DNA of 64,000 nt from an uncultured Hormoscilla sp. (GTDB lineage Bacteria > Cyanobacteriota > Cyanobacteriia > Cyanobacteriales > Desertifilaceae), in assembly GCA_963921275.4 (NCBI GenBank), contig OZ001293.3:1984001-2048000 (forward strand), written 5' to 3'. Shown piece by piece: positions 5,230 through 52,541 of this stretch (positions are counted from its first letter, which is position 1; every line of letters starts with the position of its first letter). Made by a program: the position numbers and the translations under genes. The notes under the pieces were generated by a model, which saw only the letters and a list, made by a program, of their open reading frames with translations, made no database searches and was not told where the DNA came from.

Positions 5230-5579
5230 CGGCAGTTCTTCGAGTACGATGTTAGCTAGAACACACAACTAACACTAACTGCTTTCCCTTTTTGGGCCAG
5301 CGCATTAAGCCTTTTCGCTGGATCTTGATAACGATACTTACAGAGATTTGCTTGTTCTAACCTTGAGTCTCTTTCCTAGCGGCGTCACCGGTTTAGGCTA
5401 CCAGCTATCCTACATTTAAGTCCTCGCTTGGCACCACGGCGATGTTATGGAGCAGCACCTCCGACCGGTGTCACCCCCGTACCTGGGGGAGGGGAATCTA
5501 ACCCCCATGATCACCAGAGTTCCTAGTTTCCTAGGCTAGCGTTCCGTGTTTTACCACGTTAGGCGAGAACGAATCGCAC
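5230..5579 (-). ncRNA. Group II intron copy 1 (5' part of domain I only)
   Basis: Minus strand begins GTGCGATTCGTTCT at 5579 and is collinear with the copies at 9425-10293 and 22640. It is truncated near 5230. Confidence 0.85.
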
Positions 5580-5651
5580 GCGACCATACAAGTTTTACCA
5601 GGGTTGTTACATCTTTGGAAACGAGACTCCCTGACTTGGGCACAGGTTTCT

Positions 5652-5990
5652 TACTCGTCCTTTATCAATAGTGCCTTATTAATGCAAGTAAGAAACCTGT
5701 CTGCCAATACCCGCACATCAGGTTCGGTCAGCATGCTAAAGTGGTCGCCGGGAACTCCGATCAGATCGACAACACAGGTTACGCATCGGCAGAATTGATT
5801 TACTCACTGGTACTACGTAGTCTATCTTCATGTTAAGCGCTGTAAAGCGCAAGTCGTTCGCGTAGGCGTAGCCGTGTGCGCGCAGCGCAATCCCTTTCAA
5901 AGTATAGCGAAGATCAACCCGAGCAACGAAGAGTGTAATTTTCCCCGGGTAGCCAAGCATAAGATACTCTCCTTTATTCGCTCTCACAGA
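5652..5990 (-). pseudogene. C-terminal remnant of an NRPS/PKS-type thioesterase domain
   Basis: Manual translation gives GYPGKITLF and VDLIGVPGDHFSMLTEPDVRVLADRF...*, with frameshifts and a micro-repeat insertion at about 5855-5895. Confidence 0.6.
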
Positions 5991-6323
5991 ATCCCTAGAC
6001 TTTTGTGCTGTTAAATTGTCTTTTACTTCTCAGAGCAATTCACCCAACTGCTGAGCAAAACTCAGCAACGAACCCCGCAATAATCGCTTTTTCGTTGCCA
6101 TCAGAGTCAGCTTTAGTTTTTGCAGATAGCGATAGATCAGTCCAGAACCATAACCTTCTAATATAGCTAGCAAAGCCACTGTCAAGTTTTATTAATGGAC
6201 CGACTCTCTAGGGAAAACCAAATTAGGGGGGTTAAATGGGTTTGTCAAGGTCCCTAACGCTGATGGCGGGAGCGTGACATGGGTAATTCCTTGTTTTTGT
6301 AATAACTCTATTTTTTGACCGTT

Positions 6324-6410
6324 CGATGTCTCCGGAGTAGTGCGAATACGATGCGCGAGGGGTAGTGCGATTAGCGCTCCCCGAGTGCATCGAGCTCTCC
6401 GGAGACATCG
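6324..6410. repeat. 44-bp-family hairpin element with a second 44-bp copy nested at 6349-6392
   Basis: CGATGTCTCCGGAG...CTCCGGAGACATCG encloses CGATGCGCGAGGGG-TAGTGCGATTAGCGCT-CCCCGAGTGCATCG. Confidence 0.85.
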
Positions 6411-6605: not shown

Positions 6606-8468
6606 ATGAGACCAGGTGCTATATACCTAGGGAACGATCGCTGTGAATTTATAGTGTGGGGACCGCTACTCAAGGAAGTCACTCTAAATATAGTGGGGAC
6701 CGCACCGCGCCAGATCCCTATGGAACGGTCAGCAGGGGGTTACTGGAGAGTGACTGCCGATAACATTTCTCCAGGAACACAATACCTTTACCAATTGGAT
6801 GGGGAAAAGACTCGCCCCGATCCGGCATCATATTATCAGCCAGGTAGCGTCCACGAACCATCCCAGGTGATCGAGCGCCATGCTTTTGCGTGGCAAGCGT
6901 GGCGCTGTCCGGCCCTGGCAGATTGGATTATCTATGAGTTGCATGTCAGTACTTTTACTCAGGAGGGAACCTTCGCAGGGATTATTCCCCGCTTGCAGGC
7001 GCTAAAGGAACTGGGCATAAATGCGATCGAACTGATGCCAGTGGCCCAGTTTCCGGGAAGTCGCAACTGGGGTTATGATGGAGTCTATCCCTACGCGGTG
7101 CAGAATTCCTACGGGGGTCCGGACGGACTCAAGCAGTTGGTAAATGCCTGTCACGAAGCGGAAATGGCAGTGATTCTGGATGTAGTCTACAATCACTTCG
7201 GTCCGGAAGGCAATTACACCCGGGATTTTGCTCCCTACTTTACCGAGAAGTACCATACTCCTTGGGGAAGTGCGATTAATTTTGACGACGCCTACAGTGC
7301 GGGCGTGCGGAACTTCTTCGTGGAAAATGCTCTATATTGGTTGCAAGACTATCATATAGATGCCCTGCGTTTAGATGCAGTTCACGCTATCTACGACTTT
7401 GGGGCCAAGCATTTCCTGGCAGAATTGGCAGAAGCTGTCGAAAGCTTGTCCCAGCAGGAAGGTCGCCCTTACTATTTGATAGCGGAAAGCGACCTGAATG
7501 ACGTGCGCGTTATTCGACCTCAAGCACTAGGTGGCTACGGGATCGACGCCCAATGGAGTGATGACTTTCACCACGCCCTGCATACAGTCCTGACAGGAGA
7601 ACAAAAGGGTTATTACCAAGATTTTGGCAAATGCGAACAGTTGGCGAAAGCATGGCGCGATCGCTTTGTTTATGCTTGGGATTATTCCCCCGCTCGCCAG
7701 CGCTATCACGGCAGTCACTCTGCAGCTACCGCATCGCATCCCCCAGAGCAATTTGTGGTGTGCAGCCAAAATCACGACCAAATTGGCAATAGAATGTTAG
7801 GGGAACGCCTCTCGCAACTGGTATCCTTTGCCGGGCTGAAGCTGGCGGCGGCAACGGTTTTGCTTTCTCCTTACATTCCCCTGCTGTTCATGGGCGAAGA
7901 GTATGGCGAAGAGTCTCCTTTCCTCTATTTTATCAGCCACGGAGACTCGGATCTGACTGAGGCAGTCAGGCGAGGACGAAAAGCAGAGTTCGAGGCATTT
8001 CATGAGGTGGGAGAACCGCCGGATGCAGCGAGTCCGGAGACATTTAAACGCTGCATCCTTAAATGGGAGCAGCGCAGCCAAGGGAAGCATCAAGTGTTAC
8101 TAGAATTATATCGGCAGTTAATTGGGTTGCGCCGCCACATGCAGAAAGGGTCTGGCGATTGCGCTGCGCGCACGCTACGCGATCGGAAAAACCTGGAAGT
8201 ATTAGCAATAGAAAAGGAGAAAATATTAATTTTTCGCCGTGGGAGTCAGGAAAGGCAATTTGCCTGTATAATGAATTTCAACGACAAAGAGGTAAAATAT
8301 ACCTCATATCTAGAGGGGAATAAGCGATTAGATTCCAGCGCTGCTGAATGGTTGGGCGATGGCTCTACTTTACCAGAGTCCCTAACACCACCCCAAGAGT
8401 TAACCCTGCCACCCCAAAGTTTTGCGATCTACGAACAGGGGAATGTTGACTGGGAAGAAAAGGTGTAA
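6606..8468 (+). CDS. treZ: Malto-oligosyltrehalose trehalohydrolase
   Basis: GH13 motifs RNWGYDGV, DVVYNHFGPEGNY, LRLDAVHAI, AESDLND, QNHDQIGNR. Confidence 0.95.
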   Translation: MRPGAIYLGNDRCEFIVWGPLLKEVTLNIVGTAPRQIPMERSAGGYWRVTADNISPGTQYLYQLDGEKTRPDPASYYQPGSVHEPSQVIERHAFAWQAWRCPALADWIIYELHVSTFTQEGTFAGIIPRLQALKELGINAIELMPVAQFPGSRNWGYDGVYPYAVQNSYGGPDGLKQLVNACHEAEMAVILDVVYNHFGPEGNYTRDFAPYFTEKYHTPWGSAINFDDAYSAGVRNFFVENALYWLQDYHIDALRLDAVHAIYDFGAKHFLAELAEAVESLSQQEGRPYYLIAESDLNDVRVIRPQALGGYGIDAQWSDDFHHALHTVLTGEQKGYYQDFGKCEQLAKAWRDRFVYAWDYSPARQRYHGSHSAATASHPPEQFVVCSQNHDQIGNRMLGERLSQLVSFAGLKLAAATVLLSPYIPLLFMGEEYGEESPFLYFISHGDSDLTEAVRRGRKAEFEAFHEVGEPPDAASPETFKRCILKWEQRSQGKHQVLLELYRQLIGLRRHMQKGSGDCAARTLRDRKNLEVLAIEKEKILIFRRGSQERQFACIMNFNDKEVKYTSYLEGNKRLDSSAAEWLGDGSTLPESLTPPQELTLPPQSFAIYEQGNVDWEEKV

Positions 8469-8737: not shown

Positions 8738-10448
8738 GGCGTTGCACAATTACGGGATGATTTAACTAGAGACAGGTATGCAATCATAACGTAAATAGTG
8801 TCAAAGTAACTTAATTGAAAGCTTTAACATTTATTCTGATTTTGAGTAACACAATGTTTTCCTTTTTAATCGAGTTATATAATGTCTTAATCGACAGTTT
8901 TCACGTTCAACACGAGTCATGTATGTTTTACTCACTATATGATCGATATCTTCAATAAACTTTGGATATACTGACCAACCATCCGTCACAAAAGATGCCT
9001 TTTATTATTTCCAGGCTTAAATATTTCTGCAGAACGGTCTCCTAAAGTCCATGCTATAATTCAAGGTTTAAAATGATTTACAACTGTCCATAACCACTTT
9101 TTATTCTTTTTTTCACCTACAATGTAACTCGTCAATCTCTGAAACCTCCGGTATCTCATAGTTTTCAGGGAGAACAGGCTCTTGTTGAGCTACTTGTTTT
9201 ACCCAATTTATAATAGTATTATGCTTGACATCAGTGATTCTTTCAATCCCTCGAAAGCCTTTCCCGTTGACGTACATTTTTAGACAATTTTCTTGAAATT
9301 CTTTCGGATAGCCTCGTGGAGAATAATGTTCAATAAACTGGCGACCACAATTTTTGCAAATCAAATTTTGCTTACCACGACCATTTTTATTAACTTTTTC
9401 AGAAGCGTGGACATTTCATGTTGGATGGGGTCGAGCCGGGAATCGCTTCCCGACCCTCCCTTGAGGAACCGGACTTGCGATTTTCACCGCATCCGGCTAC
9501 TGGGTACTAGGCCCTTTTCATAGGTAGACTTAATAGGAATTACTTCCGTTAGCCCTTGCCGCCTGTCTTTTCTTCCCTTTCCTGGTTTAGCGAGTGGTTA
9601 TTCTGATAACCGTTAGTATCACCATTTTCAAGTCAGTTTTACCAGTTATCCATACCTTATCCTCCACTTGCGTTTCGGATTAGTTCCGTGGCTTTTTAGG
9701 ATTACTCATTCCAGCAGCTTCCTAGTATCACCGACCCACGTCAGCGCTGGCTACCCAGCATCATCTACATTACTGTAGATGTTATCCCAGGAATTACCCC
9801 GGGCATTCGCTTCTTGGGCCATCCCTCCCCCCGTGGCTTGCGCTTAACATCTAACTTGTCCTGATGGACAGCACACGAGAGGTTACTTCGTTCCCTAACA
9901 ACATTTCGCGATACCTTTAGGTCCACACTATACCCCGGGAGCTATTTGAGTACTATATTAGCCAGAGTCTAAAACTAATACTAGCTACCATTTCCTTTTT
10001 AGGCCAGCGCATATAGCCTTATTTCGCTGGTTCCTTATAACGAGGCTTGCACATGTTTGCCTGCTCTAACCTTGGATATCTTTCCTAGCGGCGTCACCGG
10101 CTTAGGCTGCCAGTTATCCTACATTTGAGTCCTCGCTTAGCACCACGATGATGTCGCTTCGTAGCACCGAGGACCGGTGTCACCCCCGTACCTGGGGGGA
10201 GGGGAATTTAACCCCCATGCGGTCAGAGTTCCCGGCTAATGAAACCGGGCTAGCGTTCCGTGTTTGACCACGTTAGGCTAGAACGAATCGCACCAACTCC
10301 TTAAGATTATATATTAGCCTTAATATCCATTATAACACTGATTGGTACTCCTGTGTAAAATTAGCTTAGGCTGATTATAAATTGATGATGAATTATTGCA
10401 GATTATTATAATCTGCAATAATTCATCATCCCTTCGTTGTGCAACGCT
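8738..10448 (-). mobile_element. Degenerate IS1-family element carrying a group II intron
   Basis: Inverted repeats GGCGTTGCACAATTACGGGATGAT / ATCATCCCTTCGTTGTGCAACGCT; 8-bp TSD CGAATATG (8730-8737 and 10449-10456); InsA-like MKCP...CKNCGRQF...MYVNGKGFRGIERI...INWVK and a decayed InsB. Length is 842 bp without the intron. Confidence 0.85.
9425..10293 (-). ncRNA. Complete ORF-less group IIB intron (copy 2, 869 nt)
   Basis: 5' GTGCG at 10293; domain V AGCCGGATGCGGTGAAAATCGCAAGTCCGGTT with the AGC triad and a GNRA loop; domain VI ending CCCCAT at 9425; no RT ORF in domain IV. Confidence 0.9.
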
Positions 10449-11010
10449 CGAATATGATGTCCCCGAGGTGTCTCTTGGGTAGTGCGGGGTTGCCTGCGTT
10501 GCATCCCGTCGCGCAGCGTGGCGCAGCCATAGACATCGAAGTGCGTCCGGGGGACATCAAGCTCCCCCGCAGAGCACATTGTAGTCGCACTACCCAGGAG
10601 ACACGGCCCCCTCGTTCCCACGGCGATGTACTCCGGGCAGTACGAATAGTGCGCCCGGAGTACATAGAAGAAGCCTGGAAACGGGTGACGGCGGTGGTGG
10701 CGAGGCTTGCATTGAGATGCACCCGAGGGTAACGCACCGAGATCGAGGGTTGCGACCACTTGCCCGATCGCAAGGGACGGGGTATAGTACACTCTGCGGG
10801 TGGGCGTTCGAGAGGGTAACGCACCGCGATTGCGCTGCGCAATCGCACCAGGTGGCAGCGGCGGCCACTAGCATTCTCCACTGTCACGCACTTCGGTGGC
10901 ACTCGGTGTGTTGCGTACCGAAGGTGGGGGATGGTGAGAAGGGAAAGATGAGTGGGAGAAAGGGGGAAAGTCAAATCCAAGTAAAATTGCACAGAAGCAA
11001 AGGAGAAAAA

Positions 11011-13860
11011 ATGCGGGTACCAATTGCGACTTATCGGCTTCAGTTCCGTCCGGAGTTTGGCTTTGCGTCAGCTCAAAAAATTCTGCCTTATCTGGCTGAA
11101 TTGGGGATATCAGATATCTACGCTTCCCCGATACTCAAAGCCCGATCGGGGAGTATCCACGGTTACGATGTGGTAGACACAAATCAAATTAACCCGGAAC
11201 TGGGAACGGAAGCAGAATTTGAATCTTTGATGGTCCAATTGCAAGAACGAGAAATGGGATGGGTACAAGATATCGTGCCTAACCACATGGCTTATGATAG
11301 CCAAAATCAATTCTTGATGGATGTTTTGATTCACGGACAGGACTCGGAATACTGTGAGTTTTTTGATATTGATTGGGAACATCCCTACGAAGATATCAGA
11401 GGCAAGGTGCTGACGCCGATGCTGGGGGATTTTTACGGCCAATGCTTGGAAAATGGGGAAATTAAATTAAGCTATGACGAAAGGGGGCTGAGTATTAACT
11501 ACTACCGTCTTAAAATCCCCCTCAGGATAGAATCCTACGCGAGTTTTCTGAATCATGATTTTGGACGACTGTCTCGATCCCTGGGACGCAGCCATCCAGA
11601 TGTGATAAAAATTTTGGGGATTCTATATATCGTTAAGAATATCCCATCGGAAACTGCGGGGATAGAGCGGAAAGAGCAGGGGGAATTTGTCAAGGGACTG
11701 CTTTGGGAACTATACAATGATAACCAGAAAGTGAAAGGGTTTATCGACCAGAACTTGAAAAGATTTAACGGAGAGGTGGGGAAACCGGAAAGTTTTGACC
11801 TGTTGGACGATCTACTGGGAGAGCAGTTTTTCTGCCTGTCCTTTTGGAAGGTAGGAGCAGAAGAACTCAACTATCGGCGTTTCTTTACGGTGAATGAGTT
11901 GATTTGTCTGCGCATAGAAGATGCGCAGGTTTTTGAGAAAACTCACGCTCTGATTGATAAGCTAGTAGGGTCAGGGAAGTTGACAGGACTGAGAATCGAC
12001 CACATTGATGGACTCTATGCTCCCACGGAATACTTGGAACGTCTCCGTGCCAAAATGGGGGATATATATATTGTCGCCGAGAAGATTCTGGAACTGGGAG
12101 AGGAATTGCCGAGTTCGTGGAAGCTCCAAGGTACGTCAGGATATGATTTCCTCAATCACGTGAATAGCCTTTTCTGTCAGAAGGAAAATGAAAATGCTTT
12201 TACCGATCTATACGAGCGCCTGACGGGTTTGAGACCAGTATATGAGGAAATGCTGGCGGACAAAAAGCGGCTGATTGCGGAAACGAATTTAGTCGGAGAT
12301 GTGAATAATTTGGCGCACCTGCTGAAAAGAATTGCCGGTGGATACCGATACGGACGGGATTTTACCTTGGAGGGATTGAGAAAGGCAATCCTAGAAGTAT
12401 TGGTGCAGTTTCCGATCTATTGTACTTATATCGATAGGGAGGGAGTGAGCGATCGGGCACGGGGATACTTGCAAGAGGCGATCGAAAAAACCAAAAGTCA
12501 GATTCCGCAGTTACTGAACGAAATCAACTTAATTGAAAAGTTCCTATTGCTGGAGTACGACGAGTGGCTTTCCGAATCAGAACGGGAACGGTGGTTGCAT
12601 TTTAGCATGAGATTTCAGCAATTCTCTGGTCCGTTGATGGCAAAGGGGATTGAGGATACTCTATTTTATGTCTACAACCGACTGGTATCTCTGAACGAGG
12701 TAGGGGGCCATCCGGATCGATTTGGCTTGGCGGTTTCTGAGTTTCACGAGTATAATCAGAAAAAACTGGCAGATTGGCCCCACGCCATGAATGCCACTTC
12801 CACCCACGATACGAAACGCAGTGAAGATACCCGGTTGCGCCTTAACGTGCTTTCGGAAATGCCGGAAGAGTGGGAACAGCAGGTGAAAAGTTGGCGGGAA
12901 ATGAACCGGGATAAGAAAACTGTGGTAGGGAAGCGCAGCATTCCCGATCGCAACGACGAGTATTTCCTGTATCAAAATATGTTGGGTGCATTTCCCGAAG
13001 CAGTTCTCCCTTTGCGTTGTCAGGTGGAACTAAAGAACGAGGGGTTAGAGGGGATCGATAAAGAGGAGTATACTGAATTTGTCGATCGGATCAAAGATTA
13101 CGTCATCAAGGCGGTGCGGGAAGCCAAAGTCCATACGGCGTGGTTGCGGGCGGATACAGAATATGAGGAGGGTTTTGTTGCCTTTGTCGATCAGATATTA
13201 AATCCTGGTGAAGAGAACGAATTTCTCTCATCATTTCGGGCCCTCCAGCAGCGGTTGGCGGTTTACGGCAGCTTCAATTCTCTGTCCCAAACCTTGCTGA
13301 AAATTGCCTCGCCGGGAGTGCCGGACTTTTACCAGGGGACGGAACTGTGGGATTTGAGTCTGGTGGACCCCGATAACCGCCGTCCAGTCAATTATGACGA
13401 TCGACTGTCATTTTTGCAAGAGATTAAACGCCGCTGCCAGACGGGAATGATGAGTTTGATTTCTGATTTGAAGGCAACCCGGGCCGACGGACGGATGAAG
13501 CTATTTTTGATCGCCCGCGCCTTGGAGGCGAGAAAACAATATTTGCCAGTTTTCCAGGAGGGAGATTATTTGCCTTTACAGGTGTCGGGTCAATATGCTA
13601 ACCATATAGTGGCTTTTGCGAGACACTATATGGGTAAGACCGCGATCGCAGTTGCCCCCCGCTTGCTCGCGCGCGTCATCGGACCGGAACAATATCCCCT
13701 CGGTACAGAAGTTTGGGGAGATACGCGCTTGGAAATTCCTGCCCATTTACAGTCTAACTGGATAGAGGCGATCGTGAACGAGGAAATTTCAGGTAACGCG
13801 GCGCTATCAGTCGGTGAAATTCTGCAATATTTCCCAGTTGCACTTTTAGTTAGTTCGTAG
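11011..13860 (+). CDS. treY: Malto-oligosyltrehalose synthase
   Basis: MRVPIATYRLQF, HGYDVVD, DIVPNHM, GLRIDHIDGL, STHDTKRSED, GVPDFYQG, LVDPDNRRPV. Start set at ATG 11011 after AAGGAG, not at the track's 10717. Confidence 0.95.
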   Translation: MRVPIATYRLQFRPEFGFASAQKILPYLAELGISDIYASPILKARSGSIHGYDVVDTNQINPELGTEAEFESLMVQLQEREMGWVQDIVPNHMAYDSQNQFLMDVLIHGQDSEYCEFFDIDWEHPYEDIRGKVLTPMLGDFYGQCLENGEIKLSYDERGLSINYYRLKIPLRIESYASFLNHDFGRLSRSLGRSHPDVIKILGILYIVKNIPSETAGIERKEQGEFVKGLLWELYNDNQKVKGFIDQNLKRFNGEVGKPESFDLLDDLLGEQFFCLSFWKVGAEELNYRRFFTVNELICLRIEDAQVFEKTHALIDKLVGSGKLTGLRIDHIDGLYAPTEYLERLRAKMGDIYIVAEKILELGEELPSSWKLQGTSGYDFLNHVNSLFCQKENENAFTDLYERLTGLRPVYEEMLADKKRLIAETNLVGDVNNLAHLLKRIAGGYRYGRDFTLEGLRKAILEVLVQFPIYCTYIDREGVSDRARGYLQEAIEKTKSQIPQLLNEINLIEKFLLLEYDEWLSESERERWLHFSMRFQQFSGPLMAKGIEDTLFYVYNRLVSLNEVGGHPDRFGLAVSEFHEYNQKKLADWPHAMNATSTHDTKRSEDTRLRLNVLSEMPEEWEQQVKSWREMNRDKKTVVGKRSIPDRNDEYFLYQNMLGAFPEAVLPLRCQVELKNEGLEGIDKEEYTEFVDRIKDYVIKAVREAKVHTAWLRADTEYEEGFVAFVDQILNPGEENEFLSSFRALQQRLAVYGSFNSLSQTLLKIASPGVPDFYQGTELWDLSLVDPDNRRPVNYDDRLSFLQEIKRRCQTGMMSLISDLKATRADGRMKLFLIARALEARKQYLPVFQEGDYLPLQVSGQYANHIVAFARHYMGKTAIAVAPRLLARVIGPEQYPLGTEVWGDTRLEIPAHLQSNWIEAIVNEEISGNAALSVGEILQYFPVALLVSS

Positions 13861-13882
13861 GGTGGGCACTGCCCACCTTACC

Positions 13883-18215: not shown

Positions 18216-19182
18216 CTAAACCTGCCGATCCGGATCAATACCATTTTTTCGCAGAAGCGCTTTCAATCGTTCTCTTTCTTGTTGTGCAGCAGATGTTTCT
18301 GACTCAGTAGCTCTTATACGCTGTTGTACAGCAGATGTTTCTGACTCAGCAGCTCTTATACGCTGTTCTGCAGCTCTTATAGACTGTTCTGCAGCTCTTA
18401 TAGACTGTTCTGCAGCAGCTTTTTCTTGCTCAATAGCAGCTTTTGTCGCTGCATCAGTGGCAGGGGCAATCAAATCTCCTTTATCGGTCATCCACCGTTA
18501 ACCATAGTTGGTCGTAACCCAGATAGCTTCCTCGCCACAAACCTAGACTTAACTGAATTTCTGGTATCAACAATCGTCCCTCAGTTAGTGCTGTCATCCG
18601 GTAGCGGTTTCTCTCTAGCAGGAATACCTGAAGTTCCTCGGTATAACGACTATATATAACATAGTAAGGCACCCGCATAATTTGTTCGTACACTTGCCAC
18701 TTTGTGGATGGTTGCCCTGGTTCGATTGTTGCCAGACCTAAGTCCTCATCTTCCGTACCTGGGGATAATAACTCCACCACTATTAACGGGCTAACTTTTT
18801 CTTGCCACATGACATAGCTCAAACGCATGTTTCGCCCTTGATACAGTCGCGGCACTCCCACAACTCCGTATACGCAGTGCCGCACCGGGCTACGTGTCCT
18901 GCGCGTGCTCGCGACGCCGGAGCGCTACCAGTCGGGACTTTTATGCCATAAAGGATGATTGACATCGTAATATATATAGTGATCCAATTGACTGTAGACC
19001 ATTTCTGGAGCCCAGTTGAACGGCTGAAATGTTAACAGCAGCAGCATTGTTTGTAAGGAATGAAAACTGTCAGGGAAACCGGGATACTCTGGATTTTCAC
19101 TGGGTAAATCGTACATTGTCGGCAGGGGATGCCGAGGCAGTTCCTCTAAATTTGACGGTGTTGGTAGGGCAGTCATAGACAT
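18216..19182 (-). pseudogene. Uma2 family endonuclease, copy A, disrupted
   Basis: LPTMYDLPSENPE, VSPLIVVELLSPGTEDEDLG, KWQVYEQI. It has an insertion of about 58 bp at 18868-18926 and a frameshift at about 18495; 21-nt AAEQSIR repeats at the C-terminus. Confidence 0.85.
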
Positions 19183-19266
19183 GGCATCGGGGGTATAATT
19201 ATCAGGAGCATCTTGCCTTAGTATAACATACTCTATATTATCTGGTTCCTTCGAGGCGATGCCTTG

Positions 19267-19347
19267 GGTGCATCTCCATGCAAGAATTAAGAAACCTGGT
19301 TTCTGGGCTATTCGTGAAGATGTCCGCAGCAAAAGACCAGATGCACC
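19267..19347. mobile_element. 81-bp MITE
   Basis: Inverted repeats GGTGCATCT / AGATGCACC; 10-bp TSD CGATGCCTTG; absent at the equivalent site of the duplicated block (about 20567). Confidence 0.9.
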
Positions 19348-19485
19348 CGATGCCTTGGAACCCTCTCCCGTAGAGGCGATCGCCTCCCGAGCGCTAGTCA
19401 GGGAACGAGGAAATTTTATAACCTCCCGTTCCCTGCCCTCGTTAGGGAACGAGGAAAATTTTGAATTTTGAATTTTGAATTGTTT

Positions 19486-19659
19486 ATGATGTTATCTTAT
19501 GAAAAAACCGATGCGGCGATCTGCTGCTTGCTGGGAACGGCGGTGGGAGATGCGATCGGGCTTCCTTATGAAGGGCTCTCAAAAGACCGACTCCAGAAAA
19601 TATATCATCACCCGAATAAAAATCACTTTTTCTTTGGCAAAGGGATGATTTCCGACGAT
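19486..19659 (+). pseudogene. 5' fragment of ADP-ribosylglycohydrolase
   Basis: CLLGTAVGDAIGLPYEG...GMISDD, then the sequence breaks into REP DNA. Confidence 0.8.
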
Positions 19660-19720
19660 TTACCTACGAGAGTCAGGAAACGAGGCACGAGCAAGCGATC
19701 GCCTCGTGCCCTGCGTTTTT

Positions 19721-20492
19721 CTAAACCTGCTGTTCCGGGTCAATACCATGTTTTAGCAGGAGTGCTTTCAATTGTTCTATTTCTTGTTGTGCAGCTTCTT
19801 TTTCTTGTTTTTCTTGCTCAATAGCAGCTTTTGTCGCTGCATCAGTGGCAGGGGCAATCAAATCTCCTTTATCGGTCATCCACCGCAACCATAGTTGGTC
19901 GCAACCCATATAGTCTCCTCGCCACAAACCGAGACTTAACTGAATTTCTGGTATCAACAAACCTCCCTGAGTTAGTGCTGCCATCCGGTAGCGGTTTCTC
20001 ACCAGCCGGAATACCTGAAGTTCCTCGGTATAAGGCACCCGCAGAATTTGTTCGTACACTTGCCACTTTGTCGGTGGTCGCCCTGGTTCGCTTGTTGTCC
20101 GACCTAAGTCCTCATCTTCCGTACCTGGGGATAATAACTCCACCACTATTAACGGGCTAACGTTTTCATCCCACATGACATAGCTCAAACCCATGTCTCG
20201 CCCTTGATACAATCGCGGCACTCCCACAACTCCCGAACCAGTCGGGGAGTTTATACCATAAAGGATGATTGACATCGTAATAGATATTGCTATCGAATTG
20301 ACTGTAGACCATTTCTGGGGCCCAGTTGAGCGGCTGAAAGGTTAACAGCAGCAGCATTGCTTGTAAGGCATGAAAGTCGTCTGGCAAACCGGGTTCCTCT
20401 GGATTTTCACTAGGTAAATCGTACATTGTCGGCATGGGATGCCTCGGCAGTTCCTCTAAATTAGATGGTGTTGGTAGGGCAATCATAGACAT
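19721..20492 (-). pseudogene. Uma2 family endonuclease, copy B, frameshifted
   Basis: Paralog of 18216-19182; frameshift at about 20235 and a short in-frame deletion at about 20030. Confidence 0.85.
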
Positions 20493-20711: not shown

Positions 20712-22639
20712 ATGATGTTATCTAATGCAAAAAACGATGCGGCGATCGGCTGCTTGCTGGGAAAGGTGATGGGAGATGCGATCGGACTTCCTTGCTAAGG
20801 ACTTTCAAAACACAGACTCCAGAAAATCTATCGTCACCCGAACAAACATCACTTTTTCTTTGGCAAAGGGATGATTTCCGACGATACAGAACATACTTGT
20901 ATGGTAGCCCAATCATTAATCGTCTCAGCAGGTGACGAACGAATTTTTGCTCGCGAACTCGCTGGGAGATTAAAATTATGGTTGCTGGGTTTGCCCGCAG
21001 GAGTGGGCTTCGCAACCTTAAGGGCAATATTAAAGTTATGGTTGGGATATTCATACCGTCGCAGTGGCGTTTTTTCTGCCGGCAACGGTCCCGCCATGCG
21101 CAGTGCTATTATTGGCGTATGTTACGGGGATAATCTCCCCAAAATGCGATCGCTAGTCAAGGTTTCCACCCGCCTTATAGGGAATCCGGTTGTACCATAG
21201 ATGCAAGTAGGAATGAGTTAGTATCAGAACAATGGGAAAGCGCCTGAGCATCAAAGAGCACATTGGTGTGGCAGAAATGGAGCAGCGGCAGAAGTTACAG
21301 GCTATGGCTTGCAATGGATTAGAGCTATAGCCCTTCGATATCTCTTGTCGTGCTCTTGTCCCATGGGACTCGGCACGCAAGAGATATCGCCGCTTCAACG
21401 CCGGGGGAGTCGAAGGGATTGGAGATGGTCGCCATCACAACCCGGGAGCTCAACCCTTGCTCGACGACCAGCAGCAAGCACAACTGGTGCAAGCCTTAGA
21501 GGGAGAACATCCCGGAGGTGGAAGATGGACCGGACCGAAGGTGGCTATGTGGATGAGCGAGCTACTAGTCCAGTGGCACCGCAGCGAGGATGGGAAGATC
21601 GAATCTGGGCTCCTCTACAGCATCAAAGTGCCCCGTCCTGAGCACAGGGAAGCAGACGAGCTTGAACAGCAGGAGTGGAAAAAAAAACTTCGAGAGCGTA
21701 AAGAGGCATTTTTTACCGAGCTAGGTAAACTCGTACGACTTTGGACTATGGACGAGCAACGCGCGCGGGCTTAAACCTGTACTTCGTCGAGATTGGTTTG
21801 CCTGGTGGTCGGAAGCCAGACGAACAGGCCGACCCGATAAACAACTAGTCCCTATACTGGCGTAAGAGATGGTGCTGGGTCTATAGCTTTGTCGAACCGA
21901 GTAGCGGCGAGAGTGAATGGTGGCTCTTCGAGGGAGTGGAGACGGAAATCATCAGTCGTATTCTCGAAGCTTTTGCGCAGGCGCAAGGCATTGATGAGGA
22001 GCATCCAGCGCTGCTGGTGCTAGAGCGAGCGGGATGGCACACTACACAGAAGCTCGAAATCCCGCCAGGTTTGTTCAAAGAGTTCCTCCCAGCATATTCT
22101 CCAGAATTACAACCAGCCGAGAGGCTATGGCCAGTGCGTTTCGGAGGCAATAATGAATCGGGTGTTCGATTCTTTGGAAGAACTCAAAGAGGTCATCTGC
22201 GAGCGTTGTCGCCAGCTCATCAATCAGCCCGAGATATTGCGGGCACTGACTCAATTTCACTGGTGGCCGATCGCGTAGCGTGGCGCAGCCATAGCTCGCT
22301 AATTGCAATGTCTGATTAACCGGATTCCATATTACCCATACCGACCCGAAAGCAGAATGGGGGGCCCTGGCAGTGGCGATCGCGGCATTTATTTCCAGCC
22401 AAAAAACCCTGGTTTCCCCCCAGGAATATTATCAAAAGCTAGCAGAAATCCTGGATGCAGAAGCTGCTGAATTTCTGACATTAATCCAGCAAGCTGCCGA
22501 CAGTGCCGCATCTCGGGAGACAGCAGCATCATTTTCTGCAAGCATAGGCAAGGGTCAGGGAGTCAGTGGCTACGTGTATCATACTGTCCCCGTGGTAATT
22601 CAGGTCTGGTTGCAACATCAAAGAGACTATAAGAGGGCG
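20712..22639 (+). pseudogene. ADP-ribosylglycohydrolase (DraG-like), interrupted by IS630 and truncated at a group II intron
   Basis: MISDDTEHTCMVAQSL, SAGNGPAMRS; STRL|ITHTDPKAEWGA rejoins across the IS630; GVSGYVYHTVP; ends at the intron 5' end (22640). Confidence 0.85.
21178..22329 (+). mobile_element. IS630-family element, degenerate
   Basis: Inverted repeats (G)GAATCCGGTT / AACCGGATTCC at a TA target; RWTGPKVA winged helix, MDEQR, LERAGWH, FLPAYSPELQPAERLW; several frameshifts. Confidence 0.85.
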
Positions 22640-25400: not shown

Positions 25401-25552
25401 GGTTCCTTCGAGGCGATGCCTTGGAACCCCCCTCCGAGGCTCTGCCTCCAGTAGACTCAGCGAGCGCGACAGTGGAGGCAGAGCCTCTAGAGGCCCGTTC
25501 CCTGCCGGAGTCAGGGAACGAGGTTTTCTGGAGGCTCTGCCTCACTACATTG

Positions 25553-35595: not shown

Positions 35596-36271
35596 CTACA
35601 TCGGTTGTGGCTTGGCTGTATAGTTCCATTGTGGGAGAATATTGTCAAAGACAATTTGCATATTTTCCTTAAAACTTGAGCCAACTTTCACTCCTGTTTG
35701 ATAAAGCTTATCAATTACGGTTGTAAATACCTTTAATCCTGTCTTTGTTGTCCTTGTGGCTATCAAATTTTTGACCGTTTCCACCTTGTCGAATATTACC
35801 CCCTCACATGTCCGACATAGGGAAACAACCGATGTTCAATGGGATTATACTTAGAGGTATAGGGGGGATAATGAGCCATCCGAATTTCTATGCCTAGCTT
35901 GTTGCTAAGCTTTTGCAGATTTTCCTTAAACAGGTAAGAGCGGGAGCTGTTACTACCACCGCCATCACATAACAATAAAATTGAGCTTGCCAATGGATAC
36001 AGTATAGAGCCGTAAGTGAGCCACCAATAGCTAATTGAGTCACTTCACAAGTGTCATGAGATGTCCCAATCTGTATCAAGCCCTTCTTGTAGTTGAGATC
36101 GTATAAACCATGGGGAATTATCTTGCCTTGAGCCAGAGATGGCCAGTCATGGTCGTAAACATTGATTCTCTCTTGGGTTAAGCAGAGCCCATCACGATAT
36201 AGTTGAGCTATAAACTCTTTTTTTTGTGTCCATACTTATTACCGGATTTCCAGCATTTTGATAGCTCTCCA
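35596..36271 (-). mobile_element. ISAzo13-family transposase remnant
   Basis: NPVISMDTKK, LLLCDGGGSNS, AHYPPYTSKYNPIEHRLF, TTKTGLKV, WNYT; frameshifted. Confidence 0.85.
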
Positions 36272-36566
36272 CATAGGTTTTTGCGAGATTATACACCACC
36301 CGCTTCCCAAAGGCATCCACATTCAACACCTGCATCTCCACAAGCACCGTTGACTCGTCATCTAGCACCGCCTTTACATCCAGGTAGCTATCCTTTAATT
36401 CTACCAAGCTGCCGGCATTGTAGGGGTCGATTATCTCTAAATCTTTAATCTTTGGGTTACCTCCATAGATCAGAGCATTCAGAAAGCTGACCAGGATATC
36501 TTTGCTCTCGGATGAGCCAAATATTTTCTTAAAGGCAAAATCAGTTTTCGGACTGATAAATCTCAT
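36272..36566 (-). pseudogene. 5' duplicate of the Rpn gene fused to ISAzo13 sequence
   Basis: Nearly identical to about 37419-37710 through YNLAKTY, then switches to transposase sequence. Confidence 0.85.
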
Positions 36567-36780
36567 GGCTTCTTCTCCTGTTTATAGTTGCTGGTCCCGG
36601 CGCTGACAATAGCATTATATCCGATCGCCTAGAGCATCTAGTATCAGCTATAAACCGGGTTTCTCCTCTCGTTCCCAGGTAGAACCTGGGAACTTTATTC
36701 TGAGGATCTCGCCTCTTATTTGATCTAGGCATCCGTGTAAAGTCAAGTCGGGAAGATGTTTAATAAAATAGTATTACATT

Positions 36781-37710
36781 TTACTGGATTACATGCGATC
36801 GCAACCAACTGGACAAGTCATCGGGGCTAGTCAAATCAAAAATCTCCAAGGACAACATCTCTAACTCTGACAGGGACAATTTTTCGATTTCACCTCGCAG
36901 AGCAGTCGGAATTTCTCCAAACCGGTGCTCCAGCATACGCAATAACATCCCTATTCCTTCCTCAAGTCGTCCTTCTTCGCGTCCTTCTTCCCGTCCTTCC
37001 CGCCTTGCTTTGATGATTTCACCCCGTCGATCTTCAATAAACACCTCCCGTTTGTGTAGTTCTTCCAACTCTTTTACAGTCATGTTCGCTTTGTTGGCTA
37101 TTTGAAAAGCCTTCTCGATCTCCGGCACTTCCCCTAACACTGTCGGCACCGCTTCTAAGCTGGGAGCTGATTTTATGAAATAAATCCATTTTTCTGTCAA
37201 GCTCGACAACTCTGGCAGCTCTTTTTTGAATTTTGGCAGTTCCACAAACACCATTCTTAGTTCTCGGTCTCGATAGTCAAACATCAGCTCCTCTTCTTTG
37301 AACCTGAAGCTGTTTATTACCCTCTCGGTTTCTGAGAACATCTTGAAATCTGTAATGATTAAGGCAATTACTGGCTTCAGGGACGAGTATCCTGACCCTG
37401 AACTCAACTGATTACTATAGGTTTTTGCGAGATTATACACCACCCGCTTCCCAAAGGCATCCACATTCAACACCTGCATCTCCACAAGCACCGTTGACTC
37501 GTCATCTAGCACCGCCTTTACATCCAGGTAGCTATCCTTTAATTCTACCAAGCTGCCGGCATTGTAGGGGTCGATTATCTCTAAATCTTTAATCTTTGAG
37601 TTACCTCCATAGATCAGAGCATTCAGAAAGCTGACCAGGATATCTTTGCTCTCGGATGAGCCAAATATTTTCTTAAAGGCAAAATCAGTTTTCGGACTGA
37701 TAAATCTCAT
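36781..37710 (-). CDS. Rpn family PD-(D/E)XK nuclease with a DUF4351-like C-terminus
   Basis: PKTDFAFKKIFG, LDVKA, LVEMQV, FVELPKF, GREEGREEG repeats. Confidence 0.9.
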   Translation of the reverse strand: MRFISPKTDFAFKKIFGSSESKDILVSFLNALIYGGNSKIKDLEIIDPYNAGSLVELKDSYLDVKAVLDDESTVLVEMQVLNVDAFGKRVVYNLAKTYSNQLSSGSGYSSLKPVIALIITDFKMFSETERVINSFRFKEEELMFDYRDRELRMVFVELPKFKKELPELSSLTEKWIYFIKSAPSLEAVPTVLGEVPEIEKAFQIANKANMTVKELEELHKREVFIEDRRGEIIKARREGREEGREEGRLEEGIGMLLRMLEHRFGEIPTALRGEIEKLSLSELEMLSLEIFDLTSPDDLSSWLRSHVIQ

Positions 37711-40925: not shown

Positions 40926-41756
40926 ATGACTCAAGCAGTCGTTTCCGAGGTGACCATCAATGCACCTCAAGAAAAAGAATCACCACCAAGTGAGCGGATG
41001 TTCACTTTTGCAGAATATCTCGAATATGAAGGAGAACCGGACGTTCTCTATGAATTATGCAGGGGGAAACTCATACCCATGTCAGCAGCAACGCACCTAC
41101 ATACCAACATTTGCAAATTTCTGCTTTACAAGTTACAGCGCTACTTTGTGGACCAGAACTTAGATTTAGTTGCTAACTCTTTAGCGACCGGTGTCCGCAC
41201 GGAAGAAAATTCATCCCGAATTCCCGATGTGGTAGTCTGTAGCCAAACGGTTTGGGAACAAGCGATCGATCGTCCCGGCGCTGGGGTCTTAGATTTCGCC
41301 GAAAAGCCGATTCTGGTAGTAGAAGTTGTCAGCAGCAATGCCCGGGATGATTATGTGACGAAACGCTATGAATACGAAATCGCGGAAATTCCCGAATATT
41401 GGATAGTAGACCCGCAAAAGAAACGAGTGCGGGTGCTTGCTAATCCCAGCAAGGTAGAAGGATATAGCTTTGTCGATTTCACCGAAGAGCAATCGATTGT
41501 TTCCAGTCAGTTCGAGCAGCTAGTTTTATCGGTGAAAGAACTGCTCGCTCCTCCGCTGGTGGAGCTATTAATGAAAGCAGAACAGGCCAAAATGAAAACC
41601 ATGGCACAAGAGATCCTTTCCGAACGCCAACGGGCTGAAACCGAACGCCAACGTGCTGAAACCGAACACCAACGTGCTGAAACCGAACGCCAACGGGCTG
41701 AAAGATTAACCCAGCGGTTACTAGAAATGGGAGTAAACCCGTCCGAAATTAATTAA
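40926..41756 (+). CDS. Uma2 family endonuclease
   Basis: FTFAEYL, SRIPDVVV, LVVEVVSS, EIPEYWIVDP; four ERQRAET-type repeats. Confidence 0.9.
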   Translation: MTQAVVSEVTINAPQEKESPPSERMFTFAEYLEYEGEPDVLYELCRGKLIPMSAATHLHTNICKFLLYKLQRYFVDQNLDLVANSLATGVRTEENSSRIPDVVVCSQTVWEQAIDRPGAGVLDFAEKPILVVEVVSSNARDDYVTKRYEYEIAEIPEYWIVDPQKKRVRVLANPSKVEGYSFVDFTEEQSIVSSQFEQLVLSVKELLAPPLVELLMKAEQAKMKTMAQEILSERQRAETERQRAETEHQRAETERQRAERLTQRLLEMGVNPSEIN

Positions 41757-41999
41757 ACTTAACCGTTCGATTGGGCGATCGCCATTGCAGGAGGAGATCG
41801 CCCGTTTGACAATTGGTAATAAGGAAAAAGCAGAACTGGAAGAATCATGCAGACGATCCCAGGCTATTCGGGGAGCGATCGCCGCGATCGCACCGGTCAG
41901 GGCCCCATAAACTATGTGGTGGGGCGAATTTACCAAAAGATAAAATTGAGATGAGATAAAATAGTCAAAGCACCCGATCGCAGAAGAGGTCTATCCATT

Positions 42000-42782
42000 A
42001 TGACTCAAGCAGTCGTTTCCGAGGTGACCGCCAAGGCACCTCAAGAAAAAGAATCACCACCAAGTGAGCGGATGTTCACTTTTGCAGAATATCTCGAATA
42101 TGAAGGAGAACCGGACGTTCTCTATGAATTATGCAGGGGAAAACTCATACCCATGTCAGCAGCAACGCACCTACATACAAAGATTTGCAAGTTTCTGGTT
42201 TATAAATTACAGCGCTACTTTGTTGACCAGAATTTAGATTTAGTTGCTAACTCTTTAGCGACCGGTGTCCGCACAGAAGAAAATTCATCGAGAATTCCCG
42301 ATGTGGTAGTCTGTAGCCAAACGGTTTGGGAACAAGTTGAGCATCGTTCCGGTGCTGGGGTTTTAGATTTCGCCGAAAAGCCGATGTTAGTGGTAGAAGT
42401 TGTCAGCAGCAATGCCCGAGATGATTATGTGACAAAACGCTATGAATACGAAATCGCGGAAATTCCCGAATATTGGATAGTAGACCCGCAAAAGAAACGA
42501 GTGCGGGTGCTTGCTAATCCCAGCAAGGTAGAAGGATATAGCTTTGTCGATTTCACAGAAGAGCAATCAATTGTTTCCGGTCAGTTCGGACAGCTAGTTT
42601 TATCGGTGAAAGAACTGCTCGCTCCTCCGCTGGTGGAGCTATTAATGAAAGCAGAACAGGCCAAAATGAAAACCCTGGAACAAGAGATCCTTTCCGAACG
42701 CCAACGGGCTGAAGCCGAACGCCAACGGGCTGAAAATTTAGCCCAGCGGTTACTAGAAATGGGAGTCAAGGAAATCAATTAA
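42000..42782 (+). CDS. Uma2 family endonuclease, tandem paralog
   Basis: Near-identical to 40926-41756, including about 90 bp of upstream sequence; two ERQRA repeats. Confidence 0.9.
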   Translation: MTQAVVSEVTAKAPQEKESPPSERMFTFAEYLEYEGEPDVLYELCRGKLIPMSAATHLHTKICKFLVYKLQRYFVDQNLDLVANSLATGVRTEENSSRIPDVVVCSQTVWEQVEHRSGAGVLDFAEKPMLVVEVVSSNARDDYVTKRYEYEIAEIPEYWIVDPQKKRVRVLANPSKVEGYSFVDFTEEQSIVSGQFGQLVLSVKELLAPPLVELLMKAEQAKMKTLEQEILSERQRAEAERQRAENLAQRLLEMGVKEIN

Positions 42783-49045: not shown

Positions 49046-49171
49046 CTGGGTTATGGGGGTTGGACTTACCGACCGCGTGCGAGAGTGATATCGCGTCCGC
49101 TGCTAACAACGATAGCGTAGAAATAGCCTTACAATTTGATTTCCATGCCAACATGCGAGGAGAATTTGCCA

Positions 49172-51781
49172 ATGCTAAAAGCATATCGTCAACATGTGGC
49201 CGATCGGGCAGCAATGGGGATCCCGCCCCTGCCCCTAGATGCCCAGCAGACTGCCGATCTGTGCGAACTGCTGAAATATCCTCAACCTGGGGAAGAAGAA
49301 ACCCTGATGGCCTTATTGCGCGATCGGGTGCCCCCTGGGGTAGATGAGGCCGCCTACGTGAAAGCTGGCTTTCTCACCGCCGTGGCCAAGCGGGAAATTA
49401 CCTGTCCTCTGATCGTGCCCCAGGGGGCGATCGACCTCTTAGGGACAATGGTAGGGGGCTACAACGTGCAATCCTTAGTGGAGTTTCTCAAGTCTAGCAA
49501 CGCCAACCTGGCAGTTGGGGCCGCCACCGCCCTGAGTAAGATGACCTTGGTGTTTGATGCCTTTAACGAAATCTTGGAACTCTCGGAAGTCAACCCCTAC
49601 GCCAAGCAAGTAATTGACGCCTGGGCCAATGGGGCCTGGTTCATCCGCCGTCCCCAGGTGCCAGAAGCTATTCAGGTAACGGTGTTTAAGGTACAGGGAG
49701 AGACCAATACCGACGACCTCTCCCCCGCCACCCATGCTACCACCCGCCCGGACATCCCCTTACATGCCTTGTCCATGTTGGAAGCCCGCATGCCCGGGGC
49801 CCTAGAAACCATCGCTCAGTTGAAAGAAAAAGGACATCCCGTCGCCTATGTCGGAGATGTGGTGGGAACCGGTTCCTCCCGCAAATCTGCCATTAACTCT
49901 TTACTCTGGCATATCGGTAATGATATTCCCGACGTGCCCAACAAGCGGGCTGGAGGCTATATTTTGGGAGGCGCGATCGCCCCCATCTTCTTCAACACCG
50001 CTGAGGACTCTGGGGCCTTGCCCATCGAATGTGATGTCACCCAGATGGAAACGGGCATGGTAATTACAATCCATCCCTACAAAGGGGAAATTACCAACGA
50101 AGCAGGGGAAGTCATCTCCACTTTCACCCTCAAGCCCGAAACTATTTTAGATGAAGTGCGAGCCGGGGGACGCATTCCCTTACTAATTGGCCGCAGTCTC
50201 ACGGACAAAACCCGGGAAGCATTAGGATATGAACCCAGTCCTTTGTTTACTCGTCCCCGGATGCCCGCAGATACTGGCAAAGGTTTTACTTTGGCACAGA
50301 AAATGGTGGGGAAAGCTTGTGGTTTACCAGGAATTCGTCCGGGAACCGCTTGCGAACCCATTATGACCACAGTTGGTTCCCAGGATACCACGGGACCGAT
50401 GACCAGGGACGAATTAAAAGAACTCGCCTGTCTCGGTTTCAGCGCCGACTTAGTCATGCAGAGTTTCTGCCATACAGCAGCATATCCCAAACCCACAGAC
50501 ATTAAAGTCCATAAAAGTTTACCCGATTTCTTCTTTACAAGGGGTGGAGTCGCCTTGCGTCCGGGTGATGGCATTATCCACTCCTGGTTGAACCGCATGT
50601 TGCTACCGGATACCGTCGGCACCGGGGGCGACTCCCACACCCGTTTTCCCCTCGGAATTTCCTTTCCAGCGGGTTCGGGGTTAGTCGCCTTCGCCGCCGC
50701 ATTAGGGGTAATGCCCTTAGACATGCCAGAATCAGTTTTACTGCGGTTCCAGGGAGAATTGCAACCCGGAGTCACCCTGCGGGATATCGTGAATGCCATT
50801 CCATACGTAGCCATCCAGAAGGGGTTGCTAACCGTGGCCAAAGAAAACAAGAAGAACGTCTTTTCTGGACGGATCTTGGAAATGGAAGGTTTGCCCGATT
50901 TGAAAGTGGAACAGGCTTTTGAACTCACCGATGCCACAGCGGAACGTTCTTGTGCCGGATGTGTTGTGAAGTTGGGAACTGAAACTGTTTCGGAATATTT
51001 GCGATCGAACGTAGTCCTATTAAAGAATATGGTAGCGCGGGGCTATCAGGATGGGCGGAACATCATGCGCCGGGTAGCCAAGATGGAACGATGGTTAGTA
51101 AATCCCGAATTAATGTCGGCAGATGGGGATGCCGAGTACGCAGAAGTGATTGAAGTCAATCTTAAGGAGATTAAGGAACCCATTGTCGCCGCCCCCAACG
51201 ATCCAGATAACGTGAAATTAATGTCAGAATGTGCGGGGGACAAAATCCATGAAGTGTTCATCGGTTCTTGCATGACGAACATCGGTCATTATCGGGCCGC
51301 AGCCAAGGTGTTAGAAAATGCCGGACCGGTAAAGGTGCGGCTGTGGATTTGTCCGCCCACGCGCATGGACGAAAAGCAGTTGCGAGAAGAAGGACGGTAC
51401 GGAATTTTTGCCGCCGCCGGGGCGCGAACGGAAATGCCAGGATGTTCCTTATGTATGGGAAATCAGGCGCGAGTAGAAGATGGGGTGACGGTATTTTCCA
51501 CTTCGACCCGTAATTTCAAAAATCGCATGGGTAAAGGTGCGCAAGTGTATCTGGGTTCAGCGGAATTGGCAGTAGTTTGCGCACTCTTAGGACGCATTCC
51601 CACAGTAGAGGAATACATGGAGATTGTCAAGGAGAAGATTGACCCATTTGCCGGTGACTTGTATCGCTATTTGAACTTCGATCGAATTGCCGGATTCGAG
51701 GATGAAGGTCGGGTGATACCATTGGAAGAGATGCCCAAGATTGAGGAGATTTTGGGAATGCCAGTCGCGGCTGGAAAGTAG
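49172..51781 (+). CDS. acnB: Aconitate hydratase B
   Basis: [50 protein letters not shown]; start at ATG 49172 after GAGGAG. Confidence 0.97.
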
Positions 51782-51801
51782 TATAATAGTAGGGTGGGTA
51801 A

Positions 51802-52541
51802 ATTAGGGGTAACGAGCGGGCAAATCGCTTTCCAACCCTCCCATTCAAAACCGTGCATGCGACTTTCACCGCACCATACTTGTGGGTAGTAGGTCCTTGT
51901 CATAGGTAGGATTACTAGAGATTACTCTCATTGTTCCTTGTCTTATGTGATTTTGCTCCTTCACTGGTTGGTGAGTGGCGCTGCCGGATAACCTTTAGTA
52001 TCACCATTTTCACGTCCGTTTTACCAGTAATTTATTCCTCATCACTTCGCAGTGAAGGGCTGATAACGTTTTAGAGCTACTTTTACCCGAGACTTCCTAC
52101 TATCACCCACCCACGTCTGCTTATCCTAGACATTACTCCAGGCATTTGCTGGGCCATCTCTCTACCCGTGACTTGCGCTATGCGCTGCGCGCACGCTACG
52201 CGGACGCACATCTGACTGGTCCAAGAGGACAGTACAGGAGTAGTTACTTCGTTCCCTGATATCCGGAGCAGCCCTAGGCCTAAAGGCCAGGGCTACATGA
52301 ACGAAGCCCGCCTGCGCGGGCTGGATTTGACGAGGCTTACATGAATTTGCTTGTTCTGACCTTGGACATCTAACAAGCGCGGCGTCACCGACTTAGGCTG
52401 TCAGCTATCCTACATTTAAGTCCTCGGGAGGCACCACGGTGATGTTACTCCGCAGCACCTCACGCGGTTACCCCCGCGCCTGGGGAGAGGGAATTTAATC
52501 CCCATGAATATCAGAGTTCCTAGTTTCCTAGGCTAGCGTTC
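51802..52541 (-). ncRNA. Group II intron copy 4, ORF-less and decayed
   Basis: Domain V/VI GGTGCGGTGAAAGTCGCATGCACGGTTTT...CCCCTAAT with an altered triad and 5' stem; domain I homologous to the other copies; about 30 nt at the 5' end missing; EBS region replaced by a REP. Confidence 0.85.

Follow-up and report, generated by a model that had tools for sequence, protein, structure and literature searches.

Group II introns without open reading frames in Hormoscilla carry guide loops that pair with their own insertion sites

How do four copies of one ribozyme family come to lie at four places in a single stretch of cyanobacterial DNA, none of them with a reverse transcriptase (RT) of its own? 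The stretch, referred to here as the window, is 64,000 nucleotides (nt) long and comes from an uncultured Hormoscilla sp. (assembly GCA_963921275.4, contig OZ001293.3, positions 1,984,001 to 2,048,000). An initial annotation, made from the letters alone, described four group II introns in which two guide loops, the exon-binding sites EBS1 and EBS2, pair with the intron-binding sites IBS1 and IBS2 in the copy's own 5′ exon. It proposed that these introns represent the expansion of a retargeted, non-autonomous family served by an RT encoded elsewhere. The results below make it very probable that these are members of a non-autonomous group II intron family of IIB1-like architecture, lacking open reading frames (ORFs), and that retromobility has carried the family through Hormoscilla genomes. 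Judging from the name and from general knowledge of the genus, we take the host to be a sponge symbiont that lives at tropical rather than thermophilic temperatures.

The window was searched at E≤0.01 by blastn with copy 2 and by nhmmer with profiles covering domain I and the 3′ region. Both approaches returned exactly four family copies, at the places given by the initial annotation, and none further (Table 1); the copies are 72–80% identical among themselves. The places were right, but one boundary had to be moved: the 3′ end of copy 2 is at 9423 and not at 9425, as fixed by the homology of two other loci (L004 and L003, introduced below) to copy 2, which runs to 9423, together with the junction of a nested insertion. 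Copy 2 starts with GUGCG, ends in ...GACCCCAUCC and contains no ORF of 80 aa or longer. Its minimum free energy has a z-score of −3.0, and the Rfam domain V/VI model RF00029 matches at 9425–9501(−) with 44.4 bits (gathering score 40); no other Rfam model reaches its gathering score anywhere in the window. The description of four RT-less introns holds as regards family membership, but only copy 2 is intact. Copies 1 and 3 do lack domain IV, as first described, but their loss is larger, both of them breaking off inside domain I (at about position 360–380). With copies 1 and 3 being domain I stubs and copy 4 truncated and decayed, the window thus holds one intact intron of four, and copy 2 is the only window copy that could still be active.

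Genome contigs were scanned with a 24-nt motif that is conserved in all four window copies. This identified at least nine loci (L001–L009), all of them, among the matches listed, on contigs of Hormoscilla sp. metagenome-assembled genomes (MAGs; GUM202, SP12CHS1 and GM7CHS1pb). About 12 additional copies or fragments lie in these nine loci, in agreement with the proposed expansion. Locus L007 is 94–98.6% identical to the window at 36–44 kb, so the source of the window is a close relative of the listed Hormoscilla MAGs. Where window copies 2 and 4 are compared with these loci they are called W2 and W4. Complete ORF-less copies include W2 (871 nt), L004 (874 nt) and L003bc (925 nt). A distant-mode search of a plasmid collection with copy 2 gave no match. 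The L007 intron is without a counterpart at the corresponding place in the window (36–44 kb); the synteny between L007 and the window ends before this intron, and there is no filled/empty pair there. Among the Hormoscilla loci searched, no uninterrupted site was found for copy 2 or for the other window copies.

The pairing of guide loops with flanks was tested in the registers fixed by the initial annotation, which were left unchanged: the EBS1 hexamer against exon positions −6 to −1, and the EBS2 pentamer, which follows a conserved CGUUA, against positions −13 to −9. Seven copies have the 5′ exon and both loops (window copies 1–3, L003b, L004, L006 and L007), and five more copies or fragments, without the 5′ exon or the loops, fall outside the test. 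For copies 1–3 the hexamer coordinates, the exon sequences and the number of pairs (EBS1 5/6 in all three; EBS2 4/5, 5/5 and 5/5) were all reproduced, giving 9, 10 and 10 of 11 pairs at the own site. The same registers hold on four copies that the initial annotation had not seen, with 10 pairs for L003b, 11 for L004, 10 for L006 and 10 for L007. Own-site pairing over the seven copies is 70/77, and the 42 cross pairings between introns and the exons of other copies have a mean of 4.57/11 and a maximum of 7. When the exons were permuted among the introns, only one of the 5040 arrangements reached 70, and this is the true assignment. By the binomial distribution, the probability of ≥9/11 pairs is 3.6e-3 and that of ≥10/11 pairs is 4.0e-4. 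A position-by-position scan of the seven copies gave a signal only on the two diagonals that correspond to the given registers. Over both strands of the window (128000 positions), the numbers of background sites that pair as well as the real one are 678, 34 and 69 for copies 1, 2 and 3, and range from 0 to 678 per copy over all tested copies.

In 6/8 sites the exon has an A at −8, in the gap between IBS2 and IBS1, and this A could pair with a conserved U beside either loop. Conserved flank positions were also considered as a protein-recognition signal (A at −8 in 6/8 sites, T at −30 in 7/8), and rejected since neither survives correction for 45 positions.

Within a conserved scaffold, the guide loops are hypervariable: among ten copies, no two share an EBS1 or an EBS2 sequence. 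Pairwise identity is 27% for EBS1 and 30% for EBS2 compared to 81% for the remainder of domain I, and the lowest of 404 other six-column windows is still 52% identical. W2 and L004 are 91.5% identical overall, are different at 11/11 loop positions and have stems that are identical on both sides. Some EBS1 variants are only one step apart (GTGTTC, GTGTTG and GTCTTC), a series that fits stepwise mutation. U and G abound in the loops, so that wobble pairs would give a wider choice of targets. The complete loop difference between W2 and L004, together with the uniqueness of all ten loops, could mean that loops change faster than by ordinary mutation and site choice, through dedicated rewriting, for example by error-prone or template-switching reverse transcription that could be confined to the loops. 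We regard such rewriting as quite improbable; were it true, the family would be a targeting system that reprograms itself in nature, at mesophilic temperature and in the decaying genome of a symbiont.

All 13 aligned 5′ ends, including those of window copies 1–3, begin with GTGCGATTCG and fit the group II GUGYG start. RF00029 is above its gathering score in L003a, L004, L006 and L009 too (44.4–46.9 bits). Folding of 10 domain I sequences with RNAalifold gave 98 pairs, 29 of which have compensatory changes; in the stem of the EBS1 hairpin (columns 339–347/357–365), both sides have changed at 341/363, 344/360 and 345/359. Domains II–IV were also aligned, and domain IV occurs there in two forms, a short one in W2, L004, W4 and L005 and a longer one in L003bc, L006, L007 and L001. 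The family 3′ end could be read by comparing the nested L003 insertion with the uninterrupted paralog L004, which gave ...GACCCCNNCC and ...GACCCCGACC. Six of eight aligned 3′ ends follow GAC[C/U]CCNNCC, with a bulged A 8 nt before the end. The guide pairings have the IIB1 layout: the scan maxima fall exactly at 6 bp for EBS1 (−6 to −1) and 5 bp for EBS2 (−13 to −9). According to the available extracts of PMC8643678, IIB1 introns have a canonical 5-bp EBS2–IBS2 pairing with IBS2a at −14, which places IBS2 at −13 to −9.

The insertion sites include an insertion sequence (IS), genes and another copy of the family. Copy 2 lies in the sense orientation between an AAGGAG ribosome-binding site and the ATG of an IS1-family gene; its site overlaps the AAGGAG, and its 3′ exon, AACATGAAATG..., begins 3 nt 5′ of the ATG. 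Copy 3, also in sense, lies where a fragment of an ADP-ribosylglycohydrolase gene ends (Pfam ADP_ribosyl_GH, 22373–22660) and is cut off at a repeated element resembling a miniature inverted-repeat transposable element (MITE). The L007 intron is antisense in a DUF6399 gene, whose Pfam match is split at profile position 80/81, and L003bc (ORF-less) is antisense in the EBS1 loop of L003a. L003a and L004, which occupy unrelated sites, are identical over 316 nt (100%) and 99.8% identical over 564 nt, which argues that the ORF-less form moved recently in GUM202.

The L003 locus as a whole is a nested array (3686–5645), in which an antisense domain V fragment (3686–3779) is followed after 67 nt by the full copy L003a (3847–5645), itself split by the antisense full copy L003bc (4160–5084).

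We infer that the copies were inserted by reverse splicing and that the RT was supplied in trans. Each copy would use its two domain I guide loops, the 6-nt EBS1 and the 5-nt EBS2. The excised intron RNA would reverse-splice into DNA at places where both loops find complementary bases in the top strand (IBS1 at −6 to −1 and IBS2 at −13 to −9). An RT/maturase encoded by an intron at another place in the genome would then act in trans and reverse transcribe this RNA. Loop mutations would direct lineages to new sites, and the loops of each copy would thus match its own flank.

A number of observations weigh against this scheme. L003a, which is outside the seven-copy count and whose interrupted EBS1 was read from its identical paralog L004, pairs 6/6 at EBS1 but only 3/5 at EBS2. 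The degenerate L005, likewise outside the count and with its EBS1 loop deleted, pairs 0/5 at EBS2 in register, although a by-eye reading gives 4/5 when shifted by one nt. An EBS2a–IBS2a pair, between the base 5′ of EBS2 and exon position −14, is possible in only 1/7 copies; in the extracts of PMC8643678, this pair is without statistical support in organellar ORF-less introns. An EBS3/IBS3 column for exon +1 was not found, the best domain I column reaching 5/7 in a small sample. (Column 348, two nt 5′ of EBS1, reaches 6/7 against exon +2, but as one of about 1100 comparisons we make no claim for it.) The usual rule for group II 3′ ends is ‘AY’. The ...NNCC end of this family departs from the Rfam consensus ...CCCcAu, which stops two nt earlier, about 6 nt after the branch A. 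Given the 72–80% identity of the window copies and the fact that three of them are broken, activity in this genome may be long past. Furthermore, an RT-encoding intron with this ribozyme was not recovered whole, and the sole nearby RT remnant is in L008, where a frameshifted RT N-terminus (RVT_N, 2.2e-17) adjoins an IS that in turn adjoins a family 5′ fragment. As the two are parted by the IS and about 430 nt of the ribozyme are missing, the link between this RT and the family is weak and could be the product of rearrangement. Finally, the 80 RT proteins of ≥480 aa that came from a protein search with the L008 remnant gave no sense-strand match to nine copies (tblastn, E≤0.05).

No RT was found in the window when it was searched in six frames with five full-length RTs, four of them named Hormoscilla (E≤0.01). 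This, the lack of an ORF in copy 2 and the lack of a sense-strand RT match in the nine copies all agree with the claim of non-autonomy. A protein search with the L008 RT remnant as query identified at least 11 distinct Hormoscilla-named group II RT/maturase proteins of 584–603 aa, with RVT_1, GIIM and HNH domains and a YxDD motif. Protein P0007 is 83% identical to the L008 remnant, and among solved structures its best relative is a 6ME0/6MEC chain in the PDB (E 6.5e-107), with LtrA and GsI-IIC RT far behind; the 6ME0/6MEC entries are Thermosynechococcus elongatus intron structures (as cited in the extracts of PMC8643678). The suggestion of an RT encoded elsewhere is thus borne out to the extent that full-length RT/maturases exist in Hormoscilla genomes, but we can only infer their service in trans.

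Two truncated RTs from one 6.88-Mb contig, P0002 (503 aa) and P0050 (501 aa), end with residues that translate ORF-less intron sequence read antisense, at 97% and 67% identity to copy 2. In P0002, the C-terminal 34 aa are an antisense translation of the 3′ end of a W2-like intron (97% identity), and the simplest reading of the sequence is that an ORF-less copy has inserted into the RT gene for P0002. The two proteins together suggest that RT genes may have been inactivated by non-autonomous family copies.

An alternative explanation is that no proliferating non-autonomous family ever existed, and that each copy descends from an autonomous intron which encoded an RT and whose ORF was lost once it had inserted. 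The two domain IV architectures could then be separate deletions, and an RT pseudogene does lie near a family 5′ fragment in L008. However, the ORF-less L003a and L004 are almost the same sequence at two unrelated sites, the insertion of the ORF-less L003bc into L003a implies that the ORF-less form itself moved, and a sense-strand RT remnant is present in none of the nine copies. We therefore consider that ORF loss after insertion is unlikely to explain the family.

A second alternative accepts the pairing but places its origin after insertion, as compensatory mutation selected for splicing from host transcripts rather than as target choice. Copies 2 and 3 are in sense within transcription units, where splicing could matter, and the 3/5 pairing of L003a at EBS2 looks like a poor first fit. 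Against this, the antisense copies L007 (in DUF6399) and L003bc (in another intron) are not spliceable from the host transcript, yet pair 10/11, which argues that the pairing reflects target choice at insertion. In addition, the genes that carry copies 2 and 3 are pseudogenes, and L003a and L004 pair 9/11 and 11/11 with no sequence change between them. Adaptation after insertion is thus very unlikely. Spread of the four copies as parts of a larger block, through segmental duplication or recombination, is extremely unlikely in spite of the 23-nt direct repeat that brackets copy 4 and the many IS and MITE-like repeats nearby, and for copies with a 5′ end it is refuted, because the 300-nt flanks of all four are unrelated (matches of only 11–14 nt, E 0.29) and in each copy with loops these match its own flank.

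Table 1. Coordinates of the intron copies, their guide loops and associated features in the window
Feature	Position	Strand	Description
Copy 1	5229–5579	−	5′ fragment, family positions 1–359; 79% identical to copy 2 positions 1–359
Copy 1 EBS1 GUGUUC	5259–5264	−	5/6 pairs
Copy 1 EBS2 UCAAG	5324–5328	−	4/5 pairs
Copy 1 IBS1	5580–5585	−	own-site total 9/11 (with IBS2)
Copy 1 IBS2	5588–5592	−	
IS1-family transposase pseudogene	8831–9419	−	frameshift and stops; DDE_Tnp_IS1 1.1e-13 for 8831–9001(−)
Copy 2	9423–10293	−	complete ORF-less group II intron, 871 nt; blastn self match
Copy 2 EBS1 AGACUC	9965–9970	−	loop of conserved hairpin; 5/6 with exon −6 to −1
Copy 2 EBS2 UAAGG	10033–10037	−	after conserved CGUUA; 5/5 with exon −13 to −9
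Copy 2 IBS1 GAGUUG	10294–10299	−	
Copy 2 IBS2 UCUUA	10302–10306	−	
Copy 3	22640–23009	+	5′ fragment, family positions 1–380; 75% identical to copy 2 positions 1–380
Copy 3 EBS1 CGCUCG	22953–22958	+	5/6 pairs
Copy 3 EBS2 UGUAG	22887–22891	+	5/5 pairs
Copy 3 IBS1	22634–22639	+	own-site total 10/11 (with IBS2)
Copy 3 IBS2	22627–22631	+	
Copy 4	about 51799–52547	−	ORF-less, pieces 73–89% identical to copy 2
23-nt direct repeat	51776–51798 and 52663–52685	.	1 mismatch; 2 matches, 0 expected in 100 shuffles

Copy 4 was recovered by nhmmer in three pieces (52547–52313, 52263–52128 and 51965–51771). It is 5′-truncated, starting at about family position 30–50, a GC-rich palindromic repeat stands in place of its EBS1 hairpin, and its degenerate domain V gives no RF00029 match even at E≤1. 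The palindromic repeat, which is small and gives sub-threshold Rfam matches to CRISPR-DR28, is present at 4996–5019, 52300–52323 and 61905–61928, one of these being the replacement of the copy 4 hairpin. L005 and L007 contain similar GC-rich or hairpin insertions, and a ∼110-nt palindromic insertion lies in domain V of L001. The pair of 23-nt repeats brackets copy 4 together with 121 nt that have no match elsewhere in the window or the loci, and the first repeat overlaps the stop codon of aconitase B. The repeat looks like a long target duplication from the insertion of a 5′-truncated intron cDNA; nothing tested supports that.

The break of copy 3 adjoins a MITE-like repeat (23010–23160) that contains a 100% identical direct duplication (23045–23104 / 23101–23160), and a related copy at 25479–25523 has a spurious sub-threshold match to mir-3180. 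The Rfam matches to CRISPR-DR28 (31–32 bits, gathering score 35) and mir-3180 were rejected as they are below the gathering score and lie on small dispersed repeats.

Pfam searches of the window found cyanobacterial hallmarks (XisI, DUF1257 and Uma2) together with numerous split genes and transposase fragments. A type II secretion system protein F gene (126–1354) is split over two overlapping ORFs, and a cadherin/Big_9 repeat protein (53506–57179) is in four ORFs. The ORFs at 6606–8468 and 10717–13860, which flank the IS1/intron insertion, have partial alpha-amylase matches (positions 13–101 and 25–121 of 446). The regions 18481–20275, 36192–37710 and 40926–42782 contain four Uma2-family ORFs, two full and two partial, and two PD-(D/E)XK (PDDEXK_2) transposase-like genes.

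Comparisons with published systems draw on extracts of the cited papers. By analogy, the Hormoscilla family parallels the ORF-less family of T. elongatus, where the pattern is already well described. Mohr, Ghanem and Lambowitz (2010, PMC2882425) describe 28 introns in T. elongatus, and 17 of these have no ORF. Both IS elements and other introns serve as insertion sites, and an IS interrupts one of the RT ORFs. The ORF-less introns (TeI3) are mobilised in trans by the RTs of driver introns (TeI4), and proliferation is tied to high temperature (PMC2882425). The two families have in common a cyanobacterial host, complete ORF-less ribozymes with lineage-specific EBS sequences matching the own site (as in TeI3), insertion into IS and other introns, and an RT ORF interrupted by an IS. 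They differ in several respects. The Hormoscilla copies are far more diverged (72–82% identity), and many are truncated or hit by repeats. T. elongatus ORF-less introns keep N- and C-terminal RT remnants at one shared deletion break-point, whereas no ORF remnant or common break-point was found in the nine Hormoscilla copies. The ...NNCC 3′ end of the Hormoscilla family also differs from that in T. elongatus. The nested Hormoscilla copy is antisense in an EBS1 loop, while the T. elongatus twintron is in sense between two ATGs. The T. elongatus family has driver RTs and the Hormoscilla family only candidate RTs. The host, presumably a symbiont, is not a thermophile.

Nested group II intron arrays are known from Methanosarcina acetivorans (cited in PMC2882425, reference 41). 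Intron-in-intron insertion is common to both, L003 consisting of an outer fragment, a full copy and a full copy inside that. Unlike in M. acetivorans, where the target of nesting is a conserved site in the intron ORF, nesting in Hormoscilla, a bacterium, occurs in antisense and has as its target a ribozyme loop or an RT gene read antisense. Miura et al. (2022, PMC8919778) describe expansions of CL-type and ORF-less introns in filamentous cyanobacteria, Arthrospira platensis having 101 introns, and intron-rich hosts include the obligate endosymbiont Wolbachia as well as thermophiles (PMC8919778). In the literature searched, no paper links Hormoscilla with a group II intron, and a Hormoscilla comparative-genomics paper (PMC6520454) makes no mention of intron, reverse transcriptase, pseudogene, transposase or mobile.

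The Hormoscilla family represents a second, independent and more diverged natural case of ORF-less group II introns with diversified EBS sequences. Without knowledge of the family, these elements of 350–930 nt, and the genes and IS that they split, would be annotated as intergenic DNA of unexplained origin and as pseudogenes. If the family is still active or was so until recently, high temperature would not be required for proliferation by base-pair retargeting, targeting rules could be learned from its many natural pairs of loop and target, and the case would bear on the idea that introns multiply under relaxed selection in host-bound bacteria.

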